From positions 4,363,950 through 4,427,949 of the forward strand of contig NC_134026.1 of assembly GCF_964204645.1 (NCBI RefSeq): 64,000 nucleotides of DNA, read 5' to 3'. Of the stretch, positions 526 through 41,039 are shown piece by piece; position 1 is the stretch's first letter, and each line of letters opens with the position of its first letter. The position numbers were made by a program, and so were the translations under genes. The stretch comes from Tubulanus polymorphus (taxonomy: Eukaryota; Animalia; Nemertea). The notes beneath the pieces were generated by a model. That model ran no database searches. It was not told the origin of the DNA and saw only the letters and a list, made by a program, of their open reading frames with translations.

Positions 526-2603
526 TAAACTACGTTTTGCGCTATTATTTAGGTTTCTCATATAGGTTTTTCTCAAGACTTTTTGATTGATTTTGTCAAA
601 TGATCCAATAACAGGTTTAAATGAAACTTGGACGTATCGATATATCTGATCGGTGTATAGAGTCAGGATGAATTCTAGTATTTTTTGTATGATCTTCCTT
701 TCTTATCCATTCATCCGTTTTTCTTATCGAATGAAAATGAAAATGAAATTTCCACTTGATTGTCGCTGTGCCTGTATATCGGGTGTAGATGATGAAAAAT
801 AGCGTGGTGTCGTAAAGTTCTTTGATAGAAGTCGTAAATAAAGGTATGCGAGGAGACTAGAGCCGTAGATAATGGTATCATCAATAGTGACTTTATCAGA
901 TAATCGCCCATCAGAACTAATATGAATAATCATTACATTAATTGTCGTGATTAATTGTAAGAACAGTCTCTCTTACCCTCGTGTAGCACTACGTGTGCTT
1001 GAGATAAATGTTTGGTAAGCAGGATAAATGATCGAAACAATAAATTATCTATACCAGCGAAATACGACTAACTAATTACTATAATCGAACTCCATGGACC
1101 AGGAAAATGATATCCAAAATCATGGTATATTCTTCTGTTTCAAATGAGACGGAAAGGTTAGAACAAACAATAGGCCTATTGAATGACCGGTTTTTAGACG
1201 TAACTTGAAAGTTAGGGCCATCGAACGAAGTTGGGGCCATACATACATCTGCCAAAAATATTTTCACGAGCGGTATCCAGCCACCCAGCGATTTCTCTCT
1301 ACTTTAGGATCCTATATTGAAATGCTTATTTATTTTGGTACACAATGAAATAAAAGGTTTGATACGTCTTCCAAAATAGAAATGTTTTGCAACCGCAGAG
1401 ATAATTATAGAAAAATACATACCAATAAGAAAAACTCAAGAACATCGTCCATTATCATCAATCCGTCGTTATAACCCCTGAATTTGACCAGTCGTTGCTT
1501 CGGCATAAGATTTCTAAAAGCTGGGCAGATTTAACGCGATAGCTGTGACAAAACCCGTTTTAACGATTGAGAACATTTGACTTGAGCTGCGCTCGCAGCG
1601 AATCCTTTCAATAATCTGCTGAAACATTAAACTACTGCCGCGGAGTTCTCAGTTTTTATCCTTAAGAATGACGCATGAATAAAATAGCGCACAACGAATC
1701 ACGCAAGGCCAATGCAGTCTCCCATACCGAGTACCATTGTCATTCAAGTTAGAATTTAATTAAAAAATAATTCGATTTCTTATCTTGGGATTGAAATTTT
1801 GGTTCGTCGGTGATAAAACGGACGAGTGTACCCATATAAGTGGGCTTAGATTTATAACACTGTTTCTGGTTTGAGGTAAGGCTCGAAGATGCCAGGCATC
1901 CATTATCCACTACTATACCTGATCGTGCGATATTATCATAGAAAATGACATTTTAATGTTTTTTTCTGTTGAATTATCATCGCGATTGGCAACGCTAGCT
2001 GCGCTGTATTCTAACGTAATCGTGGGTGAAATTACAATGCAACTGCGAGTCATCAAAAAATCATCAGTCAAAATACATTTTAATTCTGTGCACCATGAGT
2101 GATGAGTACGCACTGCGGCAATTCATACGAATTTAAATGGGAACTAAATCAGGCAATAACTACAGGTTCAAAGAAACTGTTCACTTTATTGATATGATTC
2201 ATTAAAATGTGATAAGCTAGAATTAGATACAATAGAAATAGAAATACTAGTGAAGGCGATAGTAATATGGTTGAGACAAGTCACAATGAGTATGATCGTT
2301 TTGCGGTTATATACTATTAGACCTTGAAGCCCACCAAACTGTTTATTAGGTGTGCTTTTTTATTTGAACCAGAAATGGAATTTCCGATTGAAATATTGTA
2401 GAATGCCAGTAGTGCATGTCGATGAGCTCGTGTGGATCACGAGTGGATTCTAGAGTAGAAATATTGTATTTGATTGGAATGCATTGAAGAAAAATTAAAA
2501 ACCACATTTAACGCATTAAAATGGTATTGGTTCGATGAACTCAGATTTGTATTTTTCTGTTGCTCCCCATCCACCATTATACCGCTGAGCTGGAACACTG
2601 ACC

Positions 2604-2645
<42 letters not shown>

Positions 2646-2766
2646 CAGTCCAAATTCTGTAAAATTTCTTCCCAGCGATTTCTGATAAATAGAAACGAGT
2701 AGCAAGGACGTAGCATTGTTGGCTTTAAGCCTAACTCAAAATTTAGCGGTCAGCTGTCGACCTGGG

Positions 2767-2790
2767 CGCTCTTATTGGACAATAAGAGCG
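2767..2790. repeat. Perfect 11-bp inverted repeat (cgctcttattg-ga-caataagagcg), also at 11957-11980 and 21312-21335
   Basis: Read directly from the sequence; lies about 0.8 kb upstream of each ATG. Confidence 0.8.
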
Positions 2791-3273
2791 TTCCTTACCC
2801 TTTTGTTTTACCCTTAACGTTGAATTGCTACATTACGACATAACACGTGCTAAATATCTAACTTTGAGATATGAATATATTTGTGATTTTTCAGTAAAAT
2901 ACGCTTTTCATAATCTGTAAAACATTTCTACAAAACATATATTTGTTTATCCGATAAACAACTTATCTTCGATGGGATTTTTTCTTAGTGTTGCGACTCG
3001 ATTGATACCGACACAACTGGGATTTCGGCAACTGGTGAGAACTGGTGGTTTACGGTTTGCCACCAGTTGCCTTTATATCCGCTCAAAATAATATAACGAA
3101 TACATACATCATATTCGAATGATTATCAATCGGGAAGTTATGCAAATATCCGGCAACGATTTTTATATGAATTTGTTTTCATTTGTTTTCTCAATAAATA
3201 TTAAATTGTGTGCATACTTACAATACAAAGCGTCAGATTTTAGGGGATGGTTTCAGCTCAAACTTCCTCCTAC

Positions 3274-3469
<196 letters not shown>

Positions 3470-3547
3470 CGCATCTGCGCATTGGCGCATTGTAGCTGTT
3501 TAGACGCTGAACTGGTGGGACACGAACTGGGTGCGTCCGATAACAGA

Positions 3548-6500
3548 ATGAAGTCTAGTTCGTTAGGATTTCTGATTTTTTTGACATTCGCCGTTCGAAC
3601 CACTGTAACAAGTAAGCTATGCCAGACCAATATGGAAAGCCAGAAAAAGCATTGAAATAATATTTCGCACTAAGATGATATTGAAGCAAAATTTCAATGC
3701 CTTATAAGAATATTTCTTCGTGCCCACGAGCTATGTTTACAATATTACAATAGGCATTATGGGCTTTCGAAGATTAGTGCATATCTATGAATTGGGATAA
3801 TACTTCAACATATTTCTAAACATGTAATTGGAAAGTTTTATTTGCTAATTCTAAGTATAAATAGATAATCAATACGTTAGTATTTTGTTAACTGACTATT
3901 TTGCTAGATGTTTGCGAAGACAATGCGTTCGGTCCAAACTGTCAAACAGAATGTCACTGCAAAAATGCCTCTAAGTGCGGAGAAAATCTGGCATGCGTAT
4001 GCAAAGACAAATGGAGTGGACCGAGATGTCAAATCAGTAAGAGTAACCTTCTAGAAAAAATCATTAACACGCGACAAGTTTTTACCGAGCTTTAAATTGG
4101 CATTTTCTTATGAAACGTTATCGAATTCTGACATTCGTATCGTTGAATTTTGCAGAGAATGTAGCATTTAAAAAAGAGGTGAATTCATCTCCGATGTATT
4201 CAGTGTACACGCGAGGAATGTTAGTCGATGGAAAAGTCAATGAAAAACATAATATTTTTCACACAATAGACGTCCTCAAAGCTTGGGCTGTAATTGATCT
4301 ACTAGAACCACACGTCGTTTCTAGAGTCATTGTTCATGACAGACCTGATGCTCATTTTACCGATGAGAATGCACCATCACCAGAAGGAGATGAATGGAGT
4401 ATGTTTGAAAATATCTGGATTCTTAAACAAAGCGTTTACTTCAATAATAATTCTGATATTATGTGTTTGCTTTATTTATCAGAAAATAGGTCTCGTGAAT
4501 TAGATATACGAGTTGGTAATACTAGCGCTATCTCTGCGAGCAGTTCACGATGTTTCTACATCAAAGAACCGTTATTTGGAAAATCCACAAATAACGGGAC
4601 CTGTATGAATGGTCCGATTGTAGGGAGATACGTGAGTGTGCAACACAATCTCGAACAACCAGAATACATGAATTTGGCAGAAGTTGAAGTTTTTGGCTAT
4701 CCATTCACTCGTATGTATAATTTTGCTTCACGTTTATCGTGGCATTCCTTGATTATAATATTAAAAGTAGTCGTGAAAATCATACTTTTTAATTCATCTT
4801 TGACTAGCAAATTGTTCTGTAAAGAACACTTACGGCTGCTTAGCGAAATGTAACTGTTTGGGGAATTCTACATGTGATTATTTGACTGGCAGTTGCCAAA
4901 AAGGTTGTGCAAACAGCCACATCGGAAAGAATTGCTTTTCAGGTATGTTATATTTAGAAGTACTCACTGGATAGTTTCATTATCTTTCAATCAATTAACC
5001 AAGATTTGTCAAACAGATTTCAGAGTACCTGGGCTCCCACGTTTGGTGAATAAAACGGAGACCTCGTTGAGCATCGAATGGAATAATTACAACGGACCTA
5101 GAGACGACTCCGGCCGCGGTGAAATAAGAAATCTGAAATATAGAGTGAAAATAAGATCATCTGACGGAATGAAGCCATCAGTCGAACTGAACGCGATAGG
5201 CTACACATTTAAAGGGCTGAATCATTCGACAAAATATAACATTTCAATGTCGATTGTGGCAGATATAGGTGATAGTACCAAAGAAGGGCCAGACGGACCG
5301 GAAGTACCTTTCGTGACAGTCTGCCAACGAAAGTGTGAGTGAAGTAAATGCTAACATTTGAACGAAATAATCTATAATATGCTATTATTTCTGATTATTT
5401 CCATCCAAAGCGGTGCCTTTTCAGCCAAAGGTGAAGGAAAAAAATGCATCGACAATCCTATTGGAATGGAAGGTACATCTATAGATTTCGATTTTTTTTT
5501 ATTTGGAGACATAAACTGTATTGTATTTTATTCCATTGTTTAGGTGGTTAGTTGTTCAATTCTGACTCATCAATTCCAATCTGTTTATAGGACAACGGTT
5601 GCCAATATGAATATCTAGTCAGCTACCGAAAAGAATCCGAAAACACTTGGACAAATGTCTCGATTTCCCACAACGATTCCAAGATGATCTTACCGAAACC
5701 AGTCCCTTATACTTACTACACAATAAAGGTGATAGGAATATTGAATTACAATGATGTATGAAAAATTCAATTAACTTGCCTTGTTTCTGACGTTTTAATA
5801 CAAAATGAAGGCCGATAATTAGAAAATTTCCAATTAAGTACTTCGATTAAGATTTAAAAAAATTCTTTTAATACGATACAAATCATCCAACTCAACTGTA
5901 CGTCGACATCCTTCGACTTCAAAATAATCGGGTTTGTAAGGGACACCAAATCAAATCTTTCAATCAAATACGCAAATAAGAGAAAATAGGCTTAATAGTA
6001 ATACACGAATGGCTGTATATAGTAGTCTAAGTAATTTACCGTTTTGCAGGTGACGTCTGTAGGAAAGAAAGGTCGAGGTCGACCGAGCAATAAAGCTGTT
6101 TTCACCACTGAAGTCGGATGTAGGCATCAAATATCGTCTAACGAAATATCTGTATAGGCCGTCTTCTCTAATTTCTACAGCCATCATTCTATTTATATAC
6201 GTATCATTTCAGTTCCCAGTGAGGTGGTCAATTTCACAAAAAGCGTCGATTCAAACCATCCCATCCGGCTTGAGTGGTCACCGCCAACGCGGCCGAATGG
6301 AAGGATAGAGGGTTACCACGTGAGATGATGAATTCTGAATGATCCGTATACTTGAATCCGGCTATATCAATTTATAAACGTTAATTCATTAACAAATTCA
6401 GCTGACGTGCACATGGTTGAAAACACTATTTTCCGATAGTTCAAACAAAAAGCACCAAAAAGTGACTAAGTCTACGTTGGAAAGGAAGATGATTTTACCA

Positions 6501-7643
6501 GAGCTCGAGCCATCTACATGTTATGAGTGTACAATCAAAGCTAATACTAGCGTTGGTTACGGGCAAGAAATCACTCGACGATTTTGGACGTACCCGCATA
6601 GTGAGTGTCATTAACTTGAGTATAGATGATAATTCTGTTCATCCTATTAATGCAATATCTCAGGTAACGAACATCATTCTTATCATTACCCTTGCAGAAC
6701 CACAACTATTTGGCAAACCTAAAATCCGCTCGGAAGATACAAGTGACATCAGTGTAACGCTAAGTTTGCAAGAAATCGAAATCAGGGCTGGAAACATAAG
6801 GTAAGTAATCCATTGTCGATTCAGACTACTTTTCTGAAAGCCTTATTTCAATATCAGAAATGATTTGTATTTTGTAATTCTATACATGCAGTGAATACCA
6901 GATCGTAGTGCAGCATGTACAAGGTGGCCAGACTGGCATCAATGCGAGTGTCAACAGGAAGGACGTGAAATGTGCCCGCGAAAGTCCCCATTTCTATTTG
7001 GCTGCAAGTTTCATCAATAAGTTACCGGAAACATTCACAGTCGGAGATGGAAGCGAACATGGACCATGTCCCAATAGACAGCTCAAAAAGGGCGAGACCT
7101 ATGTTATTTGTATCCGGGCAATCAACGAGATCGATAGGGTATGGATTTGAAACATACTGATAACTTGCAAAAATGCTAGAATAATTTCCGACATTTCTAG
7201 CCCTATCCAACATGAATTCACCATGAGATTGCACTATTTCAATCTTAAAATATTGTGAAATATTTTTCGTTTAGAACAAAGAAATCAATGCGATCTGTAC
7301 AGATAAAGTTACCGGTAAGCCGAGATCAATTCAGGGAAATAAATGACTTATAATCTGAAGGGTCATGGTAAAAAAAATCAAGATTGTCAAAAATTAAAAG
7401 AGACATTCCAATACATTTCATATTTCGTTCATCATTTCGTGTTTACAAAACTCAAAAAGATTTTCGAGTCTTGTAACCAAAGAAGCCACGCTTATTATTT
7501 CGTAAACGAGTCGATAGCGCGTGTTGGATAACATTTTACATTTCTAGTGAAGAAACATGAATCGTATCTTCTGGTTATCATTGTTGCACTTGGATTTACT
7601 TTGATCATACTTGTTATCATCATCGTTGGCGTTTACAGGTATA

Positions 7644-7678
<35 letters not shown>

Positions 7679-8674
7679 ATATATATATATATAATATCGT
7701 AATACGATTCGATAAAAACTAGTTCGATATTCATCGATGATTTCTTTGAATTCAGGTACATTAAACGTCGTTCCCAGCAAGAAGGTTCGGGTTCTCATGC
7801 AGGTACAATCTTTCTTTATTTGTCACGGTTCTTTTATACGGTACATCATTGTAATAATTTGGCACTTAATGATATTCTCGATATATTATTGATTTTTCAA
7901 CAAATAGAATATATTCCAGAGAGTATCTAAGAAGTGGAGACGATCGGGATTATTTCAGGATCAGAGAGCTCTTTTAGTATAAATCCACGTAATATTCTTA
8001 TATCGAGTGTATTTTTTGATTGTTTAGCTAACAGCACGGCCCATCCCGGGGAAATTTACCTTCAGGTTTGTAAATATAAATACATCTTATTTTTTTGAAT
8101 ATTTAGATTTGTGAATCTTAACTACCTGTAGTTTTTTAATTATCTATAGCCTACACCTGCTGATCATGGTGACAGAATCTATTCTACGCAAGAGGATGTA
8201 TACGAAGACATAGATGACCACGATGACGTAGATATCGTAGATGTCGTCGATGTGGCAGATGTCACGAACGCTACAGTCCCAGAGGAAGACGTTGATATCA
8301 GGAACCCCACAGAAGATGACTACGTTAATACAAATATCAGAAAAGCTACCGAAGATACCTACGTAGTAGCAGATGTCATGAACCCCACGGAAGATGACTA
8401 CGTTAATACAAATATCAGAAAAGCTACCGAAGATACCTACATAGTAGCAGATGTCATGAACCCCACAGAAGATGACTACGTTAATACAAATATCAGAAAA
8501 GCTACCGAAGATACCTACGTAGTAGCAGATGTCATGAACCCCACAGAAGATGACTACGTTAATACAAATATCAGAAAAGCTACCGAAGATACCTACGTAG
8601 TAGCAGATGTCATGAACCCCACAGAAGATGACTACGTTAATATAAATATCACAAAAGCTAACTATAAAAGATAA
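3548..8674 (+). CDS. Receptor copy 1: SP-EGF-F-type lectin-EGF-3xFN3-RPTP-like juxtamembrane domain-TM-Tyr-repeat tail (~927 aa, 18 exons)
   Basis: Hand-built GT-AG exons: 3548-3611, 3908-4036, 4156-4398, 4483-4710, 4808-4942, 5017-5334, 5411-5472, 5591-5728, 6050-6119, 6213-6319, 6402-6600, 6698-6800, 6892-7138, 7275-7314, 7548-7638, 7756-7802, 8028-8065, 8150-8674. They sum to 2784 nt with consistent phases. Motifs: signal [21 protein letters not shown]; EGF-like [17 protein letters not shown]; F-lectin [33 protein letters not shown]; FN3 [16 protein letters not shown]; FTVGDG; [25 protein letters not shown] followed by RYIKRR. Confidence 0.88.
7640..7693. repeat. (TATC)n/(TA)n microsatellite at the start of the intron after the TM exon, copy 1
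   Basis: Seen directly; longer versions at 16847-17034 and 27648-27738. Confidence 0.95.
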
Positions 8675-8710
8675 CTACGTAGTAGCAGATATCAGGAACC
8701 CTACCGAGGT
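8303..8710 (+). repeat. Coding minisatellite, 78-bp unit (two related 39-bp halves) encoding [26 protein letters not shown], copy 1
   Basis: About 4.5 units in frame, plus a degenerate out-of-frame half unit beyond the stop codon. Confidence 0.97.
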
Positions 8711-8738
8711 TACCGCCGCTGCTGATTTTAAATAAATT

Positions 8739-8807
8739 CCTACTCTTCATCCGAGTAGGGTTTTATACAAATAATCTGTATAAAATTCTGCTTGGATGAA
8801 GAGTAGG
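8739..8807 (+). other. 31-bp stem, 7-nt loop hairpin in the predicted 3' UTR of copy 1 (also 18080-18148 and 28756-28824)
   Basis: cctactcttcatccgagtagggttttataca pairs with tgtataaaattctgcttggatgaagagtagg; the 4 non-Watson-Crick positions are all G-U on the + strand. Confidence 0.75.
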
Positions 8808-9464
8808 TCGATGATTTGTTTTAAGATTCAATTTTAAAAGAATTTTATCATTTTTTAGATGATGATAATTGTAAATAAGTATTGACTTGTTAGACTGCTA
8901 TTTGTATGTTTAATGTATTGAGTCCAAACGAGAATTCCAGGATCCACTTTCGCTTTCCCAGGTTGATTTTTGAAAATAAACTTCAAACGTCTAATTCAAT
9001 TCTCAGAATAGACCCACTATGGAACTGGATACATATTTTTATCATGGCAACTACGTGTTTAGAAAGATAGAATTTTTCATTCATATAATGTATAAACAAA
9101 AGGACATATAACAGAATTTAAATATAACAATTAAACAGTCGTTTGTGTTGATGATGTTTGGTATACCTCGCAGTCTAACTCGGTGATGGCCAACTCAAGC
9201 TTTCCTGTAAATAAGAACTCAAAAACTTAACATCTTCGGCTGAAACTATCGTGGGACTTCTTTCGTAATCACTGCGAATTCAAAATTCGAATCAAACTGC
9301 ACGTCTTGGTCCCCTCCACTCCACTCCCCAAGTACGATGACTCGCTAGATTCCGGATACATCCTCGCCTGCCAGGGCTCGGTTGCCTCCTCTGTAGTTCA
9401 CTACAGCAGTCAGTTCTCTAAATAAGAGTTCGTCCATATTTTAGAATATAGGCATCAAGACTAC

Positions 9465-9590
9465 TCAGTGTAAGTAATTACTGGGTTCGAACCCGGGACA
9501 CCTACCCTGTACATCCTTTATTCAGCCCCAGGAGCACTCGGAATCAGTGTCAGAAATTACTGGGTTCGAATATCGGACTCCCAACATTAG
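9465..9590 (+). mobile_element. Two short direct repeats with tRNA B-box-like cores (probable SINE remnants), present in all three units
   Basis: tcagtgt..aattactgggttcgaacccgg and tcagtgt..aattactgggttcgaatatcgg; no full cloverleaf is visible. Confidence 0.4.
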
Positions 9591-12475
9591 ACACACATTC
9601 TTCTTTCTTCCGCACCTGGGTGTTAATAGAATATTCCGGTAGATGGCTCTCATGCTTATTCTCTACTTAACGTTATGTTTGACGTAAATACTTCTTGATG
9701 TCCCTCAATCTCTCGTTTTGGTGATGAGTGTAAATAAATTTCATTTCAATTTCAATTTCATTGTACCGGTATCAACAATCCATGGCTTACCCTAACAAAC
9801 ACTTTATACGTCCATCAGCATCAGGGTCACTCTGAGTTCGAGTCAGTTACTTACAGCTACTACTGTACTTTCGAGAAAGCCATAACTCGAGGAAGAAGAT
9901 CTCGCCGTGGACTTACACCCGCTACGACGAGTTGGCGACATCGATACCCTTTACATAAATATTAGAATGTTATTTTATGAAGAAGATTCCGACGATTCTT
10001 CACATGTGTATATCGCAAATATTCCAAAATTGGTGGGATCGACAATGGTCAAAGCGAAGTATTTATTACTGGTCTCAATGTTGTTCCCGGAAATTTTCTG
10101 CGGAGTTCAATTATCAATCAATATTGACATTTCCATTAAATTTTTCAGAAGGTTATTTCGTTTCAATCGGAATAATCATTCTACTTAATTAAAACGGCAC
10201 GAACGAGACGATACACGACTGATAGACAAACGCCGATGGCGGAACGCGTAGACCAACAGGGTCGTTCAATAGCAGATCAATTCGATTTATAGAATTTCTT
10301 AAACATCCGATATTATAGTATCGATAATATACATAAACGATAAGGGGAAAGATCACTTAAATTGAATGGCAAGAACAGGGAGAAATGTTCCGTAAAAATG
10401 AATATCTCGTGAAAAATGAATATCTTGTTTTTAGACGAAACTTGAAAGTTGGGGCCATCGAACGAAGTTGGGGCCATACATACATCTGCCAAAAATATTT
10501 TCACGAGCGGTATCCAGCCACCCAGCGATTTCTCTCTACTTTAGGATCCTATATCGAAATGCTTATTTATTTTGGTACACAATGAAATAAAAGGTTTGAT
10601 ACGTCTTCCAAAATAGAAATGTTTTGCAACCGCAGAAATAATTATAGAAAAATACATACCAATAAGAAAAACTCAATAACATCGTCCATTATCATCAATC
10701 CGTCGTTATAACTCCTGAATTTGACCAGTCGTTGCTTCGGCATAAGATTTCTAAAAGCTGAGCAGATTTAACGCGATAGCTGTGACAAAACCCGTTTTAA
10801 CGATTGAGAACATTTGACTTGAGCTGCGCTCGCAGCAAATCCTTTCAATAATCTGCTGAAACATTAAACTACTGCCGCGGAGTTCTCAGTTTTTATCCTT
10901 AAGAATGACGCATGAATAAAATAGCGCCCAACGAATCACGCAAGGCCAATGCAGTCTCCCATACCGAGTACCATTGTCATTCAAGTTAGAATTTAATTAA
11001 AAAATAATTCGATTTCTTATCTTGGGATTGAAATTTCGGTTCGTCGGTGATAAAAAGGACGAGTGTACCCATATAAGTGGGCTTAGATTTATGACACTGT
11101 TTCTGGTTTGAGGTAAGGCTCGAAGATGCCAGGCATCCATTATCCACTACTATACCTGATCGTGCGATATTATCATAGAAAATGACATTTTAATGTTTTT
11201 TTCTGTTGAATTATCATCGCGATTGGCAACGCTAGTCGGCTGTATTCTAACGTAATCGTGGGTGAAATTACAATGCAACTGCGAGTCATCAAAAAATCAT
11301 CAGTCAAAATACATTTTAATTCTGTGCACCATGAGTGATGAGTACACACTGCGGCAATTCATACGAATTTAAATGGAAACTAAATCAGGCAATAACTACA
11401 GGTCCAAAGAAACTGTTCACTTTATTGATATGATTCATTAAAATGTGATAAGCTAGAATTAGATACAATAGAAATAGAAATACTAGTGAAGGCGATAGTA
11501 ATATGGTTGAGACAATTCATTAATGAGTATGATCGTTTTGCGGTTATATACTATTAGACCTTGAAGCCCACCAAACTGTTTATTAGGTGTGCTTTTTTAT
11601 TTGAACCAGAAATGGAATTTCCGATTGAAATATTGTAGAATGCCAGTATTGAGTAGTGCATGTCGATGAGCTCGTGTGGATCATGAGTGGATGCAGAAAA
11701 ATTAAAAACCACATTTAACGCATTAAATGGTATTGGTTCGGTGAACTCAGATTTGTTGTTTTCTGTTGCTCCCCATCCACCATTATACCGCTGAGCTGGA
11801 ACACTGACCTGTGTGTATATATATATATATATGCCCAGTCCAAATTCTGTAAAATTTCTTCCCAGCGATTTCTGATAAATAGCAACGAGTAGCAAGGACG
11901 TAGCATTGTTGGCTTTAAACCTAACTCAAAATTTAGCGGTCAGCTGTCGACCTGGGCGCTCTTATTGGACAATAAGAGCGTTCCTTACCCTTTTGTTTTA
12001 CCCTTAACGTTGAATTGCTACATTACGACATAACACGTGCTAAATATCTAACTTTGAGATATGAATATATTTGTGATTTTTGAGTAAAATACGCTTTTCA
12101 TAATCTGTAAAACATTTCTACAAAACATATATTTGTTTATCCGAGAAACAACTTATCTTTGATGGGATTTTTTCTAAAAGTGTTGCGACTCGATGGATAC
12201 CGACACAACTGGGATTTCGGCAACTGGTGAGAACTGGTAGTTTACGGTTTGCCACCAGTTACCTTTATATCCGCTCAAAATAATATAACGAAACTATATA
12301 TAATACATACATCACATTCGAATGATTATCAATCGGGAAGTTATACAAATATCCGGCAACGATTTTTATATGAATTTGTTTTCATTTGTTTTCTCAATAA
12401 ATATTAAATTGTGCATACTTACAATACAAAGCATCAGATTTTAGGGGATGGTTTCAGCTCAAACTTCCTCCTACG

Positions 12476-12710
<235 letters not shown>

Positions 12711-12763
12711 CGCATCTGCGCATTGGCGCATTGGGACACGAACTGGGTGCGTCCGATAACAGA

Positions 12764-18015
<5,252 letters not shown>

Positions 18016-21000
18016 CTACGTAGTCGCAGATATCAGGAACCCTACCGAGGTTACCGCCGCTGCTGATTTTAAATAAATTCCTACTCTTCATCCGAGTAGG
18101 GTTTTATACAAATAATCTGTATAAAATTCTGCTTGGATGAAGAGTTGGTCGATGATTTGTTTTAAGATTCAATTTTAAAAGAATTTTATCATTTTTTAGA
18201 TGATGATAATTGTAAATAAGTATTGACTTGTTAGACTGCTATTTGTATGTTTAATGTATTGAGTCCAAACGAGAATTCAAGGATCCACTTTCGCTTTCCC
18301 AGGTTGATTTTTGAAAATAAACTTCAAACGTCTAATTCAATTCTCAGAATAGACCCACTATGGAACTGGATACATATTTTTATCATGGCAACTACGTGTT
18401 TAGAAAGATAGAATTTTTCATTCATATAATGTATAAACAAAAGGACATAAAAAAACAGAATTTAAATATAACAATTAAACAGTCGTTTGTGTTGATGATG
18501 TTTGGTATACCTCGCAGTCTAACTCGGTGATGGCCAACTCAAGCTTTCCTGTAAATAAGAACTCAAAAACTTAACATCTTCGGCTGAAACTATCGTGGGA
18601 CTTCTTTCGTAATCACTGCGAATTCAAAATTCGAATCAAACTGCACGTCCTGGTCCCCTCCACTCCACTCCCCAAGTACGATGACTCGCTAGATTCTGGA
18701 TACATCCTCGCCTGCCAGGGCTCGGTTGCCTCCTCTGTAGTTCACTACAGCAGTCAGTTCTCTAAATAAGAGTTCGTCCATATTTTAGAATATAGGCATC
18801 AAGACTACTCAGTGTAAGTAATTACTGGGTTCGAACCCGGGACACCTACCCTGTACATCCTTTATTCAGCCCCAGGAGCACTCGGAATCAGTGTCAGAAA
18901 TTACTGGGTTCGAATATCGGACTCCCAACATTAGACACACATTCTTCTTTCTTCCGCACCTGGGTGTTAATAGAATATTCCGGTAGATGGCTCTCATGCT
19001 TATTCTCTACTTACCGTTATGTTTGACGTAAATACTTCTTGATGTCCCTCAATCTCTCGTTTTGGTGATGAGTGTAAATAAATTTCATTTCAATTTCAAT
19101 TTCATTGTACCGGTATCAACAATCCATGGCTTACCCTAACAAACACTTTATACGTCCATCAGCATCAGGGTCACTCTGAGTTCGAGTCAGTTACTTACAG
19201 CTACTACTGTACTTTCGAGAAAGCCATAACTCGAGGAAGAAGATCTCGCCGTGGACTTACACCCGCTACGAAGAGTTGGCGACATCGATACCCTTTACAT
19301 AAATATTAGAATGTTATTTTATGAAGAAGATTCCGACGATTCTTCACATGTGTATATCGCAAATATTCCAAAATTGGTGGGATCGACAATGGTCAAAGCG
19401 AAGTATTTATTACTGGTCTCAATGTTGTTCCCGGAAATTTTCTGCGGAGTTCAATTATCAATCAATATTGACATTTCCATTAAATTTTTCAGAAGGTTAT
19501 TTCGTTTCAATCGGAATAATCATTCTACTTAATTAAAACGGCACGAACGAGACGATACACGACTGATAGACAAACGCCGATGGCGGAACGCGTAGACCAA
19601 CAGGGCCGTTCAATAGCAGATCAATTCGATTTATAGAATTTCTTAAACATCCGATATTATAGTATCGATAATATACATAAACGATAAGGGGAAAGATCAC
19701 TTAAATTGAATGGCAAGAACAGGGAGAAATGTTCCGTAAAAATGAATATCTCGTGAAAAATGAATATCTTGTTTTTAGACGAAACTTGAAAGTTGGGGCC
19801 ATCGAACGAAGTTGGGGCCATACATACATCTGCCAAAAATATTTTCACGAGCGGTATCCAGCCACCCAGCGATTTCTCTCTACTTTAGGATCCTATATCG
19901 AAATGCTTATTTATTTTGGTACACAATGAAATAAAAGGTTTGATACGTCTTCCAAAATAGAAATGTTTTGCAACCGCAGAAATAATTATAGAAAAATACA
20001 TACCAATAAGAAAAACTCAATAACATCGTCCATTATCATCAATCCGTCGTTATAACTCCTGAATTTGACCAGTCGTTGCTTCGGCATAAGATTTCTAAAA
20101 GCTGAGCAGATTTAACGCGATAGCTGTGACAAAACCCGTTTTAACGATTGAGAACATTTGACTTGAGCTGCGCTCGCAGCAAATCCTTTCAATAATCTGC
20201 TGAAACATTAAACTACTGCCGCGGAGTTCTCAGTTTTTATCCTTAAGAATGACGCATGAATAAAATAGCGCCCAACGAATCACGCAAGGCCAATGCAGTC
20301 TCCCATACCGAGTACCATTGTCATTCAAGTTAGAATTTAATTAAAAAATAATTCGATTTCTTATCTTGGGATTGAAATTTCGGTTCGTCGGTGATAAAAA
20401 GGACGAGTGTACCCATATAAGTGGGCTTAGATTTATGACACTGTTTCTGGTTTGAGGTAAGGCTCGAAGATGCCAGGCATCCATTATCCACTACTCTACC
20501 TGATCGTGCGATATTATCATAGAAAATGACATTTTAATGTTTTTTTCTGTTGAATTATCATCGCGATTGGCAACGCTAGTCGGCTGTATTCTAACGTAAT
20601 CGTGGGTGAAATTACAATGCAACTGCGAGTCATCAAAAAATCATCAGTCAAAATACATTTTAATTCTGTGCACCATGAGTGATGAGTACACACTGCGGCA
20701 ATTCATACGAATTTAAATGGAAACTAAATCAGGCAATAACTACAGGTCCAAAGAAACTGTTCACTGATATGGTTCATTAAAATGTGATAAGCTAGAATTA
20801 GATACAATAGAAATAGAAATACTAGTGAAGGCGATAGTAATATGGTTGAGACAAGTCATTAATGAGTATGATCGTTTTGCGGTTATATACTATTAGACCT
20901 TGAAGCCCACCAAACTGTTTATTACGTGTGCTTTTTTATTTGAACCAGAAATGGAATTTCCGATTGAAATATTGTAGAATGCCAGTACTGAGTAGTGCAT

Positions 21001-21148
21001 GTCGATGAGCTCGTGTGGATCATGAGTGGATGCAGAAAAATTAAAAACCACATTTAACGCATTAAATGGTATTGGTTCGGTGAACTCAGATTTGTTGTTT
21101 TCTGTTGCTCCCCATCCACCATTATACCGCAGAGCTGGAACACTGACC

Positions 21149-21190
<42 letters not shown>

Positions 21191-21831
21191 CAGTCCAAAT
21201 TCTGTAAAATTTCTTCCCAGCGATTTCTGATAAATAGCAACGAGTAGCAAGGACGTAGCATTGTTGGCTTTAAGCCTAACTCAAAATTTAGCGGTCAGCT
21301 GTCGACCTGGGCGCTCTTATTGGACAATAAGAGCGTTCCTTACCCTTTTGTTTTACCCTTAACGTTGAATTGCTACATTACGACATAACACGTGCTAAAT
21401 ATCTAACTTTGAGATATGAATATATTTGTGATTTTTGAGTAAAATACGCTTTTCATAATCTGTAAAACATTTCTACAAAACATATATTTGTTTATCCGAG
21501 AAACAACTTATCTTTGATGGGATTTTTTCTAAAAGTGTTGCGACTCGATGGATACCGACACAACTGGGATTTCGGCAACTGGTGAGAACTGGTAGTTTAC
21601 GGTTTGCCACCAGTTGCCTTTATATCCGCTCAAAATAATATAACGAAACTATATATAATACATACATCACATTCGAATGATTATCAATCGGGAAGTTATA
21701 CAAATATCCGGCAACGATTGTTATATGAATTTGTTTTCATTTGTTTTCTCAATAAATATTAAATTGTGTGCATACTTACAATACAAAGCATCAGATTTTA
21801 GGGGATGGTTTCAGCTCAAACTTCCTCCTAC

Positions 21832-22028
<197 letters not shown>

Positions 22029-22113
22029 TTTTTGTCGCATCTGCGCATTGGCGCATTGTAGCTGTTTAGACGCTGAACTGGTGGGACACGAACTGGGTGC
22101 GTCCGATAACAGA

Positions 22114-25100
22114 ATGAAGTCTAGTTCGTTAGGATTTCTGATCTTTTTGACATTTGCCGTTCGAACCACTGTAACAAGTAAGCTATGCCAGACCAATATG
22201 GAAAGCCAGAAAAAGCATTGAAATAATATTTCGCACTAAGATGATATTGAAGCAAAATTTCAATGCCTTTTAAGAATATTTCCTCGTGCCCACGAGCTAT
22301 GTTTACAATATTACAATAGGCATTATGGGCTTTCGAAGATTAGTGCATTTTTGTAAATTGGGATAATACTTTAACATATTTCTAAACATGTAATTGGAAA
22401 GTTTTATTTGCTAATTCTAAGAATAAATAGATAATCAATACGTTAGTATTTTGTTAACTGACTATTTTGCTAGGTGTTTGCGATGACAATGCGTTCGGTC
22501 CAAACTGTCGAACAGAATGTCACTGCAAAAATGCCTCTAAGTGCGGAGAAAATCTGGCATGCGTATGCAAAGACAAATGGAGTGGACCGAGATGTCAAAT
22601 CAGTAAGAGTAACCTTCTAGAAAAAATCATTAACACGCGACAAGTTTTTACCAAGCTTTAAATTGGCATTTTCTTATGAAACGTTATCGAATTCTGACAT
22701 TCGTATCGTTGAATTTTGCAGAGAATGTAGCATTACATAGGACGGTACATACAAGTAAAATCTGGAGCACAATGACGGGAGAAAAGTTGGTAGATGGAGT
22801 CAAGAATAATTATTTTAACACGGACAAAGTCCCTAATGCTTCGGCTGTAATTGATCTACAAAAACCATACGTCGTTTCTAGAGTCATTGTTCATGACAGA
22901 CCTGATGCTCGTGTTACCGATGAGAATGCACCATTGCCAGAAGGAGCTAAATGGAGTATGTTTGAAAATATCCGGATTCTTAAAAAAAGCGTTTACTTCA
23001 ATAATAATTCTGATATTATGTGTTTGCTTTATTTATCAGAAAATAGGTCTCGTGAATTAGATATACGAGTTGGTAATACTAGCGCTATCCCTGGGAGCAG
23101 TTCACGATGTTTCTACATCAAAAAACCGTTATTTGGAAAATCCACAAACGGGACCTGTATGAATGGTCCGATTATAGGGAGATACGTGAGTGTGCAACAC
23201 AATCTCAAACAACCCGAATACATGAATTTGGCAGAAGTTGAAGTTTTTGGCTATCCATTCACTCGTATGTATAATTTTGCTTCACGTTTATCGTGGCATT
23301 CCTTGATTATAATATTAAAAGTAGTCGTGAAAATCATACTTTTTAATTCATCTTTGACTAGGAAATTGTTCTGTAAAGAACACTTACGGCTGCTTAGCGA
23401 AATGTAACTGTTTGAGGAATTCTACATGTGATTATTTGACTGGCAGTTGTCAAAAAGGTTGTGCAAACAGCCACATCGGAAAGAATTGCTTTTCAGGTAT
23501 GTTATATTTATAAGTACTCACTGGATAGTTTCATTATCTTTTAATCAATTAACCAAGATTTGTCGAACAGATTTCAGAGTACCTGGGCTCCCACGCTTGG
23601 TGAATAAAACGGAGACCTCGTTGAGCATTGAATGGAATAATTACAACGGACCTAGAGACGACTCCGGCCGCGGTGAAATAAGAAATCTGAAATATAGAGT
23701 GAAAATAAGATCATCTGACGGAATGAAGCCATCAGTCGAACTGAACGCGATTAAAGGGCTGAAACATTCGACAAAATATAACATTTCAATGTCGATTGTG
23801 GCAGATATAGGTGATAGTACCAAAGAAGGGCCATACGGACCGGAAGTATCTTTCGTGACGGTCTGCCAACGTAAGTGTGAATGAAGTAAATGCTAACATT
23901 TGAACGAAAATATCTATAATGCTATTATTTCTGATTATTTCCATCCAAAGCGGTGCCTGTTCAGCCAAATGTGAAGGAAGACAATGCAACGACAATCCTA
24001 TTGGCATGGAAGGTATCATATAGATTTTATATTCCTGACAATTGTGCTTATTTGAAATCTTTTTCTTGTAAACATAAACACGTTTGTATTTTATTCCATA
24101 TATTAAGGCGATTAGTTTTCTTGATGAAGCTGCTGTGCATTTTCGGGTTCATTGTTGTCATTAAGTAATTATGTCTTTACTCGTCAATCTCAATCTGCTT
24201 ATAGGACAACGGTTGTCAATATGAATACCTAGTCCGCTATCGAAGAAAATCCGAAAACCCTTGGAGAAATATCTCAACTCGCGCTTCGGAGGTGATTTTA
24301 CAAAATCTAGTCCCTTATACTGACTACATGATAAAGGTATTGACATGGAATGGGTCAGAATGGGCACTCATGGATAAAGAATTAGAATATAGAACCGCTG
24401 AAGGAGGTAATAACCATTCAACCACTTATATAGCGGGCAGTAGCTCACGGCTCAAAAAAAAAGTTAAACCCCACATCACTTCGTCTTTTTCCAATCTGAT
24501 TTTATGATACACATCCGTTTCAGTTCCGGCGAAGGTTCAAAATCTTACAGTTACGTTTTCAAACGCAACCTCTTTGGAACTTTCATGGAAACCGCCAACT
24601 ACCGCGAATGGGATACTATCAGGATACATTATTTCGAAGAAATTGATACGTTATCAGGCATGTTCTGGGAATAGTGCCGAAAATAGTACGACTTCTCATT
24701 TGAATAGAACAAACAGTAGACTAGGTAACTTGCAGCCGTTTGCTGAATACAATATCACGGTACAAGCAAAAACTAAAGTTGGACCGGGCGAAAACGTGCA
24801 TCTTAGCCACTCAACAAATGAAACAAGTTAGTACAAATAAACCGAAACTCGGCTACGGGATAAACACTATAAAGGTGAATTAAAATGATGACCAATAACA
24901 TTCTTGAATTTTCATATATTTTCAGCGCCACACCCGACAACACGCCCGCCTGTGGTAAATATTAACGCCGGGGAAATGGTGTTCAGCAACATAAGTTGTA
25001 AAAAGATGAATGGACATTGGGAAAACTTCGTACTCAAATATAAGAATCTTTGGAACAACACCGAAATTGGGCCTATACCAATGAATCGGTCAAGATACGC

Positions 25101-27656
25101 AATCTCGATGCTTGGTTTGGAACCTAACATGCTCTATGAGATACGGTATGCGTGGAAAAACGGTTTTGGTAGCAGTGAATTTTCGGATCCTTTGATCTAT
25201 CTAACAGAAGAAACGGGTAATCACGTTTGTAATTTTTTCCAGTCGTAAATATCATTGAGTGAAAACCCTGAAATAATTCAAACAACTGCTATTGTTTGTT
25301 TCCTTACGTTTCGGGTGGAAGCATCGTCAGAGTTTATTTGAAAATGAACATTTTCCGGGTATTTACTCTCAAGGGTAATCACATTTCTATTTCATTTTCG
25401 TATCAATCTATTTAATTAATTTACAATCTGATGGTTGTACGTTATTTCGTGGCTATCAACCTACTAAGATAGCTACACAAGTATTAATGTCGTCTTCTTC
25501 CTCGTGATTTAAGGACTAATTAAGCATTTAACTCAATTTAAAGCACCCTATCTTGTTTTTTTTCCTTCCAAATCTCAGTTCCAGATGCGCCTATCTTATC
25601 CAGCGAGACGTCCGTAGACTCGTCGTCGATAAAAGTCAACTGGACACAACCAGTGCCGCCACGCGGAAACGTCACCGCTTACACAATCAGTTGTACAGCA
25701 ACCGATGTAAAAGAAACTATAGAGACTTTGAATGTCAGCTCCCTGGAATTTACTCCGGCAAAAAAGCCCGGCGGCAAATGGTTCAAATATCGAATGCGAA
25801 ATCTTACTTCACATGTCAACTACACTTGCCAAGTATGCATTTGAGGAATTAATGGAGATAAAGAACCCTACGTTTTTTCCCGGTTATTTACAAATCAAAT
25901 GCAATATTCGATTAACCGTATTCGAAATTGTTTGTGACGTTTTAATAGAGGATGAGCTCTGCAGCGATAATCTGAGTTTATGTGAGAAACGGAACCGAAA
26001 TTTCCAATAATGTACTTCGATTTAGATAAAGTAGAAATAATACGAGAGAAAAATAGGCTGATGTCGAAGAATTTATATATGATGAATGGCTATATATGGT
26101 TTAAAAACAAGTTACCGTTTTGCAGGTGATTGCTAAAGGAAAGAAAGGACAAAGTCGACCGAGCAATACAGCTGTTTTTATCACTAAAGTCGGATGTAGG
26201 CATCAAATATCGTCTAACGGAATATCTGTATAGGCCGTCGTGTCTAATATCTACAGCCATCATTCTATTTATATACGTATCATTTCAGTTCCCAGTGAGG
26301 TGGTCAATTTCACAAAAAGCGTCGATTCAAACCATCCCATCCAGCTTCAGTGGTCACCGCCAACGCGGCCGAATGGAAAGATAGAGGGTTACCACGTGAG
26401 ATGATGAATTCTGAATGATCCGTATACTTGAATCCGGCTATATCAATTTATAAACGTTAATTCATTAACAAATTCAGCTGACGTGCACATGGAAGGAAAC
26501 ATTTTCCGATAGTTCAAACAAAAAGCTTCAAAAAGTGACTAAGTCTACGTTGGAAAGGAAGATGATTTTACCAGAGCTCGAGCCATCTACATGTTATGAG
26601 TGTACAATCAAAGCTAATACTAGCATTGGTTACGGGCAAGAAATCACTCGGCGATTTTGGACGTACCCGCATAGTGAGTGTCATTTACTTGAGTATAGAT
26701 GATAATTCTGTTCATCCTATTAATACAATATCTCAGGTAACGAATTTCATTCTTATCATTACCCTTGCAGAACCACAACTATTTGGCAAACCTAAAATCC
26801 GCTCGGAAGATACAAGTGACATCAGTGTAACGCTAAGTTTGCAAGAAATCGAAATCAGGGTTGGAAACATAAGGTAAGTAATCCATTGTTGATTCAGACT
26901 ACTTTTCTGAAAGTCTTATTTCAATATCATAAATGATTTGTATTTTGTAATTCTATACATGCAGTGAATACCAGATCGTAGTGCAGCATGTACAAGGTGG
27001 CCAGACTGGCATCAATGCGAGTGTCAACAGGAAGGACGTGAAATGTGCCCGCGAAAGTCCCCATTTCTATTTGGCTGCAAGTTTCATCAATAAGTTACCG
27101 GAAACATTCACAGTCGGAGATGGAAGCGAACATGGACCATGTCACAATAGACAGCTCAAAAAGGACGAGACCTATGTTATTTGTATCCGGGCAATCAACG
27201 AGATCGATAGGGTATGGATTTGAAACATACTGATAACTTGCAAAAATGCTAGAATAATTTCCGATATTTCTAGCCCTATCCAACATGAATTCACCATGAG
27301 ATTGCACTATTTCAATCTTAAAATATTGTGAAATATTTTTCGTTTAGAACAAAGAAATCAATGCGATCTGTACAGATAAAGTTACCGGTAAGCCGAGTTC
27401 AATTCAGGGAAATAAATGACTTATAATCTGAAGGGTCATGGTAAAAAAAATCAAGATTGTCAAAAATTAAAAGAGACATTCCAATACATTTCATATTTCG
27501 TTCATCATTTCGTGTTTACATCATTTCGTGTTGGATAACATTTTACATTTCTAGTGAAGAAACATGAATCGTATCTTCTGGTTATCATTGTTGCACTTGG
27601 ATTTACTTTGATCATACTTGTTATCATCATCGTTGGCGTTTACAGGTATATATCTA

Positions 27657-27742
<86 letters not shown>

Positions 27743-28691
27743 TCGATATTCATCGATGATTTCTTTGAATTCAGGTACATTAAACGTCGTTCCCAGCAAG
27801 AAGGTTCAGGTTCTGATGCAGGTACAATCTTTCTTTATTTGTCACGGTTCTTTTATACGGTACATCATTGTAATAATTTGGCACTTAATAATATTCTCGA
27901 TATATTATTGATTTTTCAACAAATAGAATATATTCCAGAGAGTATCTAAGAAGTGGAGACGATCGGGATTATTTCAGGATCAGAGAGCTCTTTTAGTATA
28001 AATCCATGGATTATTCTTATATCGAGTGTATTTTATGATTTTAGCTAACAGCACGGCCCGTCCCGGGGAAATTTACCTTCAGGTTTGTAAATATAAATAC
28101 ATCTTATTTTTTTCAATATTTAGATTTGTGAATCTTTACTACGTGTAGTTTTTTAATTATCTATAGCCTATACCTGCTGTTCATGGTGACAGAATCTGTT
28201 CTACGCAAGAGGATGTATACGAAGACATAGATGACCACGATGACGTAGATATCGTAGATGTCGTCCATGTGGCAGATGTCACGAACGCTACAGTCCCAGA
28301 GGAAGACGTAGATATCAGGAACCCCACAGAAGATGACTACGTTAATACAAATATCAGAAAAGCTACCGAAGATACCTACGTAGTAGCAGATGTCATGAAC
28401 CCCACAGAAGATGACTACGTTAATACAAATATCAGAAAAGCTACCGAAGATACCTACGTAGTAGCAGATGTCATGAACCCCACAGAAGATGACTACGTTA
28501 ATACAAATATCAGAAAAGCTACCGAAGATACCTACATAGTAGCAGATGTCATGAACCCCACAGAAGATGACTACGTTAATACAAATATCAGAAAAGCTAC
28601 CGAAGATACCTACATAGTAGCAGATGTCATGAACCCCACAGAAGATGACTACGTTAATATAAATATCACAAAAGCTAACTATAAAAGATAA
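22114..28691 (+). CDS. Receptor copy 3 (long 6xFN3 form, ~1220 aa, 21 exons) with a third F-type lectin variant
   Basis: Shared exons plus a longer exon 24205-24406 and extra FN3 exons 24524-24826 ([31 protein letters not shown]), 24926-25216 ([11 protein letters not shown]) and 25579-25832 ([16 protein letters not shown]), joined to 26126-26195; GT-AG boundaries with compatible phases. Confidence 0.87.
27648..27738. repeat. (TA)n microsatellite in the post-TM intron, copy 3
   Basis: Seen directly. Confidence 0.95.
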
Positions 28692-28727
28692 CTACGTAGT
28701 AGCAGATATCAGGAACCCTACCGAGGT
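28320..28727 (+). repeat. 78-bp coding minisatellite (Tyr-repeat tail), copy 3
   Basis: ORF 28269-28691. Confidence 0.97.
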
Positions 28728-39524: not shown

Positions 39525-41039
39525 CTATACAGTTTCTTCGGTAGCAGTCTGAGGAGTACCGTTACCTAGATGGACTGAAGTCTCTCCTTGGTTATTGCAA
39601 CGCACGACGGACTCGGCAGTGCGGTAATTGTCCCGATTAGCGCTCTCGCGTCTGCCAACCCCCAAGCTGTCTCTTCGTAAACTGTCTCTAAGATGGACCG
39701 GGATACCGTATTGTTCGGCATAGCTTTCCGTGCGCAACCGGCTATTAATACTTTTGCATCTGAATAAGAGGATTTCTTTGAACGGTGTTCGGAATTCTCG
39801 ATTGAATTTAGCATAAATGATTGGGTTCATTAACGAATTGAGGTAACCTAACCACAGTAATAAACTTGTGACCCACGGCGGAATCTCCAACCTCAACGTT
39901 CCCGCGAAAGGTCTTATAATTGCTAGTATAAAAAACGGAAGCCAACACGCTATGAAACAACCCATAATTACTCCGAGCGTTTTAATCGCTTTTGAATCGG
40001 ATGATTTGTTTGATCGACCAAGACCTTTGAACCCAATTTTACGTCTCGATCGCGGTAGCATTTCGATTCTGCTCTCATCGTTCGAGTCCCTGGAGGCGCG
40101 CTTCGCCGAACCGTTTGGGCAGTTGTGGTTTTCTTCTTTCGTGTCCGACGCCTCGCTACTTCGTTTGAATATGTTTAATCTCAATCCGGAACTGCCGCCA
40201 CCGGACGACGAACGCGTGTCATTAACAGGTGGAGGTGCACTAGGGGTATGATCACTGAAACCCCGTGGGTTCGATTTATTTTCAGCTTGGGCTAATCGAG
40301 CTGATATCCTGAATATCCTATAATAAACCACTATCATGACACTTAATGGTATGTAAAAGGCACCTAATGTTGCATAAACTTGATAGCCGATCTCTTGGCT
40401 TACGTTACATTCGTTCGGCCTGTACTCTTGCTTCCAACCAAAAAGTGGAGGGATGCTTATCAACGCCGACATACCCCACACTATTGTGATCATCATCGCC
40501 ATGAGTTTTGGAGTTCTTTTTATAGCGTACTGCAGCGGCCGCGTTATCACGAAATATCGGTCTATACTGATCATACATAAATTCAATATGGAAGCTGTAC
40601 ACAGCAATACGTCCAACGAAACCCAGAAATCGCACACAACCTCACCCAACGTCCAATAACCTTTCATTATTTCCATCATCGCAGCAAACGGCATCACGAA
40701 TACCCCGACTGACATGTCGGCTAAGGCTAACGATACGATCAGTAGATTCGACGGTGTCCGTAGTTTCCGTACTAACGCGACGGCCAACACGACGAGAATG
40801 TTTCCGACAACTGTGCCACCGATTATGCACGACAGGACCAAGCCCGTGAGCGCAGCTTGCCATCCCGTGTACGGTTCCGGACGACTTTCCCCTACTGCCA
40901 GCGTCAGGTTCGTGAAATTGTTGCCGAAGCATTCGGTATCGTTAATAGTACAATTGACTCCGAAAAAAGCTAAATCCGCTGTGGTGCTATCAAATTCATA
41001 ACCAACCGTGGATGTATTCCCGTCATTGATACCTAGCAT
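39525..41039 (-). CDS. HTR7: Serotonin receptor, 5-HT7-like class A GPCR (504 aa, one coding exon)
   Basis: Seven hydrophobic helices; GNILV, SLALAD, amine-binding Asp in SLDVLLCTASILNLC, DRY, KRTP, YQVYATLGAFYIP, CWLPFF, WLGYLNSLMNPIIY; the KLRTPSN and NREFRTPFKEIL..RC motifs recall invertebrate 5-HT7; N-glycosylated N-terminus; ends in EETV. A splice acceptor (tctttttcag) precedes 41068 with the frame open, so the N-terminus may extend into an upstream exon. Confidence 0.9.
   Translation of the reverse strand: MLGINDGNTSTVGYEFDSTTADLAFFGVNCTINDTECFGNNFTNLTLAVGESRPEPYTGWQAALTGLVLSCIIGGTVVGNILVVLAVALVRKLRTPSNLLIVSLALADMSVGVFVMPFAAMMEIMKGYWTLGEVVCDFWVSLDVLLCTASILNLCMISIDRYFVITRPLQYAIKRTPKLMAMMITIVWGMSALISIPPLFGWKQEYRPNECNVSQEIGYQVYATLGAFYIPLSVMIVVYYRIFRISARLAQAENKSNPRGFSDHTPSAPPPVNDTRSSSGGGSSGLRLNIFKRSSEASDTKEENHNCPNGSAKRASRDSNDESRIEMLPRSRRKIGFKGLGRSNKSSDSKAIKTLGVIMGCFIACWLPFFILAIIRPFAGTLRLEIPPWVTSLLLWLGYLNSLMNPIIYAKFNREFRTPFKEILLFRCKSINSRLRTESYAEQYGIPVHLRDSLRRDSLGVGRRESANRDNYRTAESVVRCNNQGETSVHLGNGTPQTATEETV

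Follow-up and report, generated by a model that had tools for sequence, protein, structure and literature searches.

A sharply bounded divergent patch at the predicted sugar-binding face of tandem F-type lectin receptors in the nemertean Tubulanus polymorphus

In a stretch of 64,000 nucleotides from the nemertean Tubulanus polymorphus (the whole of which was analysed and is referred to as the window), we have found a tandem array of three units, each of which carries one receptor gene; the features of the array are collected in Table 1. By their source names, the database proteins that match these genes also come from T. polymorphus. The frames of all three gene models are intact and their splice sites are canonical, and the order of the domains is the same in each copy: a signal peptide, an EGF-like domain, an F-type lectin domain (FTLD) encoded by two exons, a second EGF-like domain, FN3 repeats, a membrane-proximal FN3 domain of the PTPRU type, a TM helix and a Tyr-repeat tail.

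Table 1. Coordinates of the tandem array, its genes and the features discussed in the text (positions in the window).
Feature	Position	Strand	Remarks
Tandem array	1190..30460		three head-to-tail units, each ~9.3 kb; self-comparison
Unit 1	1190..10426
Unit 2	10427..19770
Unit 3	19771..30460
Copy 1 gene	3548..8674	+	18 exons, 927 aa; contained in database protein P0005
Copy 2 gene	12764..18015	+	18 exons, 924 aa; matches P0002 downstream of the signal exon
Copy 3 gene	22114..28691	+	21 exons, 1220 aa; three additional FN3 domains; identical to P0006
FTLD exon a, copy 1	4156..4398	+	carries the patch and an extended CDR4; flanking introns spliced GT..AG in X5 contigs
FTLD exon b, copy 1	4483..4710	+
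Patch, copy 1 (type A)	4167..4286	+	40 codons: first strand, CDR1, Ca helix, CDR2, His strand
Patch, copy 2 (type B)	13383..13499	+	39 codons
Patch, copy 3 (type C)	22733..22843	+	37 codons; Asn in place of the triad His in the assembly
Small variable spot, copy 1	4653..4672	+	ahead of the C-terminal strand; presumed CDR5 side
Second old tract	5411..6119	+	copies 1 and 2 nearly identical, both distant from copy 3; includes an intron (31/117)
Three FN3 exons	24524..25832	+	only in copy 3 and the RPTP paralogue P0004
Last exon, copy 1	8150..8674	+	78-bp repeat x5; acidic Tyr-repeat tail without phosphatase
Last exon, copy 2	17491..18015		counterpart of the copy 1 tail exon
Last exon, copy 3	28167..28691		counterpart of the copy 1 tail exon

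Contigs of run X5 skip both introns that flank FTLD exon a, which shows that the family has members that are transcribed and spliced. The 84-bp intron that lies within the lectin domain (4399-4482) is in frame and free of stop codons in 3/3 copies, and it is spliced out in X5; its retention would add 28 residues to CDR4. A possible 15-nt mini-exon near 7909 has been excluded from the gene models, the frame being unaffected either way, and the reading of the exon after FN3-1 as the start of a discoidin domain with a stop codon has been rejected because it uses the wrong frame; in the correct frame, the exon encodes FN3. The database isoform P0003, which joins the front of copy 2 with the back of copy 3, is probably an annotation chimera, or else a product of read-through splicing. 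Matches to scorpion toxins (E 0.2-2.6) have been set aside as fortuitous. Each start codon is preceded, at a distance of 60-90 bp, by some 200 bp of (TA)n (3275-3465, 12476-12706 and 21833-22027), and downstream of every TM exon there is a (TATC)n/(TA)n tract whose length varies. Adjoining the array is a single-exon class A GPCR gene on the reverse strand (39525-41093), an amine receptor which, by resemblance, we take to be of the serotonin type; local, near-perfect duplications occur at 42016-43540 and 44801-45205 (556 bp at 99.6%, 415 bp at 95.9%).

The cytoplasmic tail consists of 204 residues with 14-15 tyrosines, and contains five acidic YxN and four acidic Y[VI]V motifs at the place where a paralogous database protein, P0004, has phosphatase domains; judged from its motifs, the tail looks like an SH2-docking or phosphatase-substrate array. 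No match to a PTP domain has been found in the 64-kb window, where the genes end in the Tyr-repeat tail, and the tail itself gives no match to the ITAM or ITIM consensus. P0004 is a full receptor tyrosine phosphatase of 1646 aa, encoded on a contig which has the length of the window's own contig (31.9 Mb), with two Y_phosphatase stretches, with the motifs HCSAGAGRT and WPD, and with intact D1 motifs; together with the window genes, it displays the arrangement by which paired receptors are recognised, i.e. a shared ectodomain on differing cytoplasmic parts. Two more distant paralogues of the same architecture, P0024 and P0025, are located on a different contig.

Outside one short patch in FTLD exon a, the genes are 98-99% identical and the non-coding sites of the units differ by 1-2% (66/5450, 99/5398 and 76/5371 mismatches, i.e. 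1.2-1.8%, in a count that leaves out microsatellites and the tract 5335-6212). Inside the patch, the nucleotide mismatches rise to 34/115 (copy 1 vs copy 2), 50/109 (1 vs 3) and 46/109 (2 vs 3), i.e. 30-46%, and the amino-acid identities fall to 19/39, 14/37 and 12/37 in the same order of pairs, while the intron just upstream has 1/119, 1/119 and 0/119 mismatches and the intron just downstream 1/84, 2/84 and 3/84. When the mismatches were permuted (2000 times per pair), the densest 110 columns contained 11-15 of them at most, vs the 34-50 observed. The island begins 11 bp into the exon and stops at the start of the barrel core; a random island of 118 bp would fall entirely within FTLD exon a in 1.4% of placements. 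A preliminary description of this DNA had reported the three variable peptides and their coordinates, the near-identical upstream intron, a smaller variable spot and indels that comprise whole codons only, and all of these are found in the sequence: the codon bounds and the spot are those listed in Table 1, and the indels among the three copies measure 3, 6 and 9 nt. Of the identities given there, 19/40 for copies 1 and 2 has the right count, and 13/40 for copies 1 and 3 is slightly off.

The assignment of the domain to the F-type lectin fold, also part of that description, is supported by the match of an AlphaFold2 model to solved F-type lectins. The model corresponds to the copy 2 frame with the in-frame intron retained (mean pLDDT 81.5, the retained intron folding at low confidence); it matches bass lectin 3cqo (Z 20.3, rmsd 1.6, 135 aligned) and eel agglutinin 1k12 (Z 19.1, rmsd 2.6, 136 aligned, model residues 1-183 onto chain residues 10-156), and F-type lectins account for 10/10 of the ten best structure matches. 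With residues mapped by DSSP and by alignment anchors (Asp38, His52 and Arg79, from the available text of PMC5712786), not by 3D distances, the patch corresponds approximately to residues 13-60 of eel agglutinin, i.e. to a short strand, CDR1, the Ca helix, CDR2, the His strand and the next loop, and its end coincides with the onset of the long barrel strand at model residue 42. The patch is located at the predicted ligand- or sugar-binding face of the FTLD; its earlier equation with the CDR loops around the sugar pocket holds for CDR1, CDR2 and the His position, and has to be widened to the short strand, the Ca helix and the His strand. The 7 patch positions that are invariant in the four paralogues have a conservation of 0.82 across the family, and the 33 positions that vary have 0.41 (p=0.002, from 250 FTLDs).

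The fucose triad, a His with Arg-x-Asp 27 residues on (AAA His52, Arg79 and Asp81), is present in copies 1 and 2 and in P0004; the triad position of copy 3 is occupied by Asn in the assembly and by His in 5 reads of run X6. Neither a basic residue four positions after RxD (AAA Arg86) nor the pair Cys82-Cys83 is present in the domain, and the Cys50-Cys146 pair has been lost; CDR4 contains an insertion of about 14 aa, beyond which an Arg aligns with the Arg column of the family. Fucose binding cannot be taken for granted, given the long CDR4 insertion, the missing Cys-Cys, the loss of one disulfide and the Asn that copy 3 has for His. The statement that the Ca-binding motif is kept is correct for the DG of all three copies, which also retain the Ser49-equivalent (N/S) and Glu147, and incorrect for the strict h2DGx pattern, from which the flanking residues deviate; P0004 has EG.

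Codons that differ while encoding the same amino acid make up 2/18 (copies 1 and 2), 7/14 (1 and 3) and 3/12 (2 and 3) in the patch, 12/44 when pooled, and 9/755, 12/734 and 10/741 elsewhere, 31/2230 when pooled; by counting, the dS of the patch is 0.25-0.68. Since its synonymous sites are so far diverged, the variants of the patch are old. The second old tract adjoins the site at which copies 1 and 2 have lost three FN3 domains, and the divergence of the intron beside this indel (Table 1) indicates that the paralogue lineages themselves are old; from these sequence comparisons, the 1-2% background would reflect homogenisation and not the age of the lineages. In the place of the lost domains (5728-6050 vs 24342-26126), the front of FN3-2 is joined to the last mini-exon of FN3-5, and the hybrid FN3 of copies 1 and 2 arises via a splice donor within former coding sequence. 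In the same two copies (5326-5340 and 14536-14550), the donor that is used by copy 3 is mutated from GT to GA, and an in-frame GTGAGT donor 6 bases downstream replaces it, by which two residues are gained and the frame is rescued. A small variable spot in FN3-6 (6417-6428), with a 3-base indel, distinguishes copy 1 from copies 2 and 3.

The flanks of the patch have evolved in concert, homogenised by conversion or unequal crossing-over: ancestry switches along the unit, and the exons form a mosaic with P0004. Upstream of the gene, copy 2 agrees with copy 3 at 33 sites vs 5, and beyond 7001 it agrees with copy 1 at 51 sites vs 3 (pooled test p=3e-14), with mixed affinities between 3548 and 4710. 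This pattern has the form of an unequal-crossover hybrid; the patch of copy 2, which is neither parent's, probably came from another allele or locus.

Most exons of the P0004 ectodomain are 93-100% identical to those of the window copies: EGF2 is like copies 1 and 2 (45/45), FN3-2a is like copy 3 (21/21), and the patch is like that of copy 1 (32/40). The TM exon agrees at only 20/31 residues, which again indicates old paralogue lineages. Compared with copy 3, the P0004 ectodomain is about 97% identical apart from three spots, located in FN3-2b (50/67, 24205-24406), FN3-4 (87/97, 24926-25216) and the membrane-proximal domain (68/79, 26965-27211). As these spots are divergent, the patch is not the sole island, and they are possible second targets of selection.

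Patch variants in other samples have been collected from runs X1, X2, X5 and X6, i.e. 4 of the 10 listed runs, and the same types recur in samples of three studies. The raw reads of X6, with a depth of about 2-5 over the patch, at which somatic variants may go unseen, contain types A, B and C, the type C with the triad His mentioned above and with a distinct CDR4 variant (5 reads each). In the remaining material, contigs lose rare variants, and contig depths are a rough hint, not copy numbers. The spliced contigs of X5 include a P0004-like (A-like) piece and a B-like piece with 9 changes, 9/9 of which are non-synonymous. Run X1, which may be the assembly's own sample, yields at least 6 patch sequences: copies 1 and 2 at 0 differences, a joint that fits type C, two A-like forms, of which one has 11 differences and the other a 9-base deletion, and a further type, D. 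Type D is also present in X2, where one contig has a 1-base deletion that is either a frameshift or a contig error. Read by hand, type D has its first two residues as in C, a Val and the stretch from CDR1 to the helix as in P0004, and two stretches as in B, the pieces shared with types A, B and C being 2-8 codons long; as it also matches the outgroup P0024 around RxD, part of this mosaic could be retained ancestry. At positions 7 and 17, copies 1 and 2 are grouped against P0004 and D, contrary to the main split, a conflict that needs either short conversion or parallel change.

An elevated dN/dS had been put forward as the check on diversifying selection, and the outcome is divided. Across the whole patch, the ratio by counting is 1.58 (copies 1 and 2), 1.01 (1 and 3) and 1.13 (2 and 3), with Fisher p 0.3-0.6, and by maximum likelihood (M0) it is 1.76 (p=0.14), so that it does not significantly exceed 1. 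The comparison of M2a with M1a on the patch gives 2dL=12.6 (p=0.002), with about 22% of codons positively selected and with top positions 12, 14, 15 and 16, all in CDR1, and p becomes 0.13-0.14 when double-base changes are allowed; these fits, made with analyst-written code, are based on only three sequences, which recombine. An M2a test on the whole FTLD (2dL 52.9) has been discarded as invalid because the patch and its flanks differ in age. Outside the patch, the gene dN/dS is 0.86, and thus constraint is weak throughout. Among the copy 2 exon variants in the reads, 31 non-synonymous changes stand against 3 synonymous ones (p=0.03 if transition bias is ignored, and 0.008 at a kappa of 3). 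These changes were classified by hand after the data had been seen; one ambiguous site was left out, three sites that are shared entered the count a single time, and one change from the loose end of a contig or read was included. Substitutions in the patch comprise 56 transitions and 74 transversions, vs 148 and 109 outside it, and a deaminase-type transition excess has not been found in the patch.

We consider it probable that the patch is an island of old variants, held distinct by diversifying selection against the homogenising effect that unequal crossing-over and gene conversion have on the rest; what is reported here is a known divergence-peak pattern in an unusually sharp form. The proposal of the preliminary description that selection resists homogenisation is thus retained as the best-fitting reading, qualified by the age of the patch and by its patch-wide dN/dS. 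The patch could alternatively be a neutral old tract which conversion happened to miss, pairing having been blocked early on by an indel or a cluster of changes, and which then drifted; this agrees with a dS that is as high as dN in two of the three pairs, with a second old tract that takes in intron DNA beside a large indel, and with selection tests that depend on the model. However, divergence affects the same 120 bp in every pairwise comparison of the four paralogues and the read-derived type D, the frames stay open and the fold residues are kept at up to 46% divergence, the placement of the island between the exon start and the barrel core is improbable by chance, and the read variants show a non-synonymous excess, so that we hold drift for an improbable cause. 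Still less probable is a recent duplication followed by very fast positive selection on point mutations in the loops alone, with no old lineages: the background divergence of merely 1-2%, the dominance of transversions in the patch and the clustering of the top sites in CDR1 speak for it, but synonymous differences at unchanged residues exceed the background 10- to 30-fold, and the TM exon and one intron indicate old lineages.

The sharp and shared boundaries, the short pieces of A, B and C in the hand-read type D, the contradictory sites 7 and 17 and the number of patch sequences in X1 would also suit a system like that of chicken Ig or VLR, in which dedicated donors or pseudo-exons serve as templates from which the variants are copied, be it in the germ line or in somatic cells. 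Yet the 64-kb window contains no such donor, its matches being the other copies and chance 12-16-mers; no short related protein occurs among 4671 candidates; the borders lack signal repeats or RSS-like motifs, their one 9-bp direct repeat being at chance level; and the same types recur across the three studies. For cassette-like conversion from donors elsewhere, as suggested earlier, no dedicated donor is thus seen in the window or among short proteins, and we rate it lower again; such exchange as is evident takes place among the full genes, the phosphatase-bearing paralogue included. Heterozygosity in marine invertebrates includes the range of 1-2%, and two haplotypes wrongly placed in tandem could therefore mimic the background divergence; since X1 and X6 contain at least six patch sequences and at least three types, which is beyond one diploid locus, since copies 1 and 2 are recovered in X1 contigs without a difference, and since the contrast of the patch would hold regardless, we practically dismiss an assembly artefact.

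If old variants are indeed maintained by diversifying selection, conversions that overwrite the patch would be selected against, each type binding a different ligand, and the diverged patch would additionally block its own conversion; occasional short exchanges would shuffle patch segments among the paralogues, and copy 2 would have originated as an unequal-crossover hybrid and taken up a further variant. The putative role of the receptors is likely non-self recognition of a microbe or parasite glycan, and the phosphatase receptor and the tyrosine-tail receptors are predicted to give opposite signals. A more far-reaching reading, which we offer tentatively and regard as rather unlikely, is a paired-receptor chassis that carries an MHC-style patchwork: short conversions and unequal crossing-over would exchange ancient, balanced variants of one 40-residue ligand-binding cassette between a receptor phosphatase (off) and its tyrosine-tail partners (on), with each worm possessing at least six specificities. 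The patch delimits, with codon precision, what is likely the specificity-determining surface in a hitherto unstudied family of invertebrate receptors, the near-identical scaffold around the variants makes ligand tests directly comparable, and the locus would be an especially clear example from nature of selection that withstands gene conversion.

We have found no paper on this locus in the open-access literature, as covered by main texts. The main text of a paper on Lineus immunity (PMC9835746) does not mention F-type lectins or fucolectins. Divergence peaks under gene conversion are described, in the available text of PMC3924837, for exon 5 of the human red/green opsins and for RHCE/RHD, together with the model of Teshima and Innan; as in the worm, exon divergence in these tandem paralogues far exceeds that of the flanking introns, and it is centred on functional sites, which in the worm are predicted ones. 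The worm differs in having at least four deep types instead of two, a divergence of 30-46% over 120 bp, amino-acid variation within a type from sample to sample, and types that look mosaic.

Among F-type lectins, the available text of PMC5712786 reports for Japanese eel eFL-1-7 and Pacific oyster bindin that variation is focused on CDR1 and CDR2, with positive selection around the pocket, with recombination, and with loss of triad residues in some isoforms. The variable CDR1 and CDR2, the recombination and the occasional loss of a triad residue are shared with the worm; the eel and oyster lectins, however, are secreted or acrosomal, whereas the worm has one FTLD within a membrane receptor, and oyster bindin, as described in that text, recombines in a variable intron and splices repeats, whereas the introns of the worm are near-invariant and exchange takes place inside the exon.

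Similar in architecture are the Biomphalaria SudRes1 and LG5R receptors, which, according to the available parts of PMC12297450 and PMC13712769, combine EGF and galactose-binding or fucolectin domains with a TM segment, with or without tandem PTP domains. Like the worm genes, these are lophotrochozoan clusters of paralogous single-pass EGF/fucolectin receptors with extracellular diversity and changes in copy number, and the snail subgroup 1C, with two PTP domains, is to subgroup 1B, with none, as P0004 is to the window genes. The worm receptors add FN3 arrays and the Tyr-repeat tail, the likeness being drawn at the level of architecture, and a 120-bp island against identical introns is not described in those parts of the snail accounts. 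The snail loci, as presented there, are associated with resistance to a parasite (schistosome), and the worm locus has no such association yet; the resemblance to these clusters adds to the relevance of the worm patch.

In the vertebrate paired receptors CEACAM1/3 and Siglec-5/14, as presented in the available text of PMC5112662, gene conversion keeps the ectodomains near-identical while the cytoplasmic parts differ. There, conversion equalises the ligand domain, whereas in the worm the ligand loops are the part that differs; and the vertebrate tails carry ITIM or ITAM, whereas the worm tail has neither consensus and one partner is itself a phosphatase. If the pairing of phosphatase and tyrosine tail is true, the worm family would represent a form of paired receptor that is built without ITAM or ITIM.
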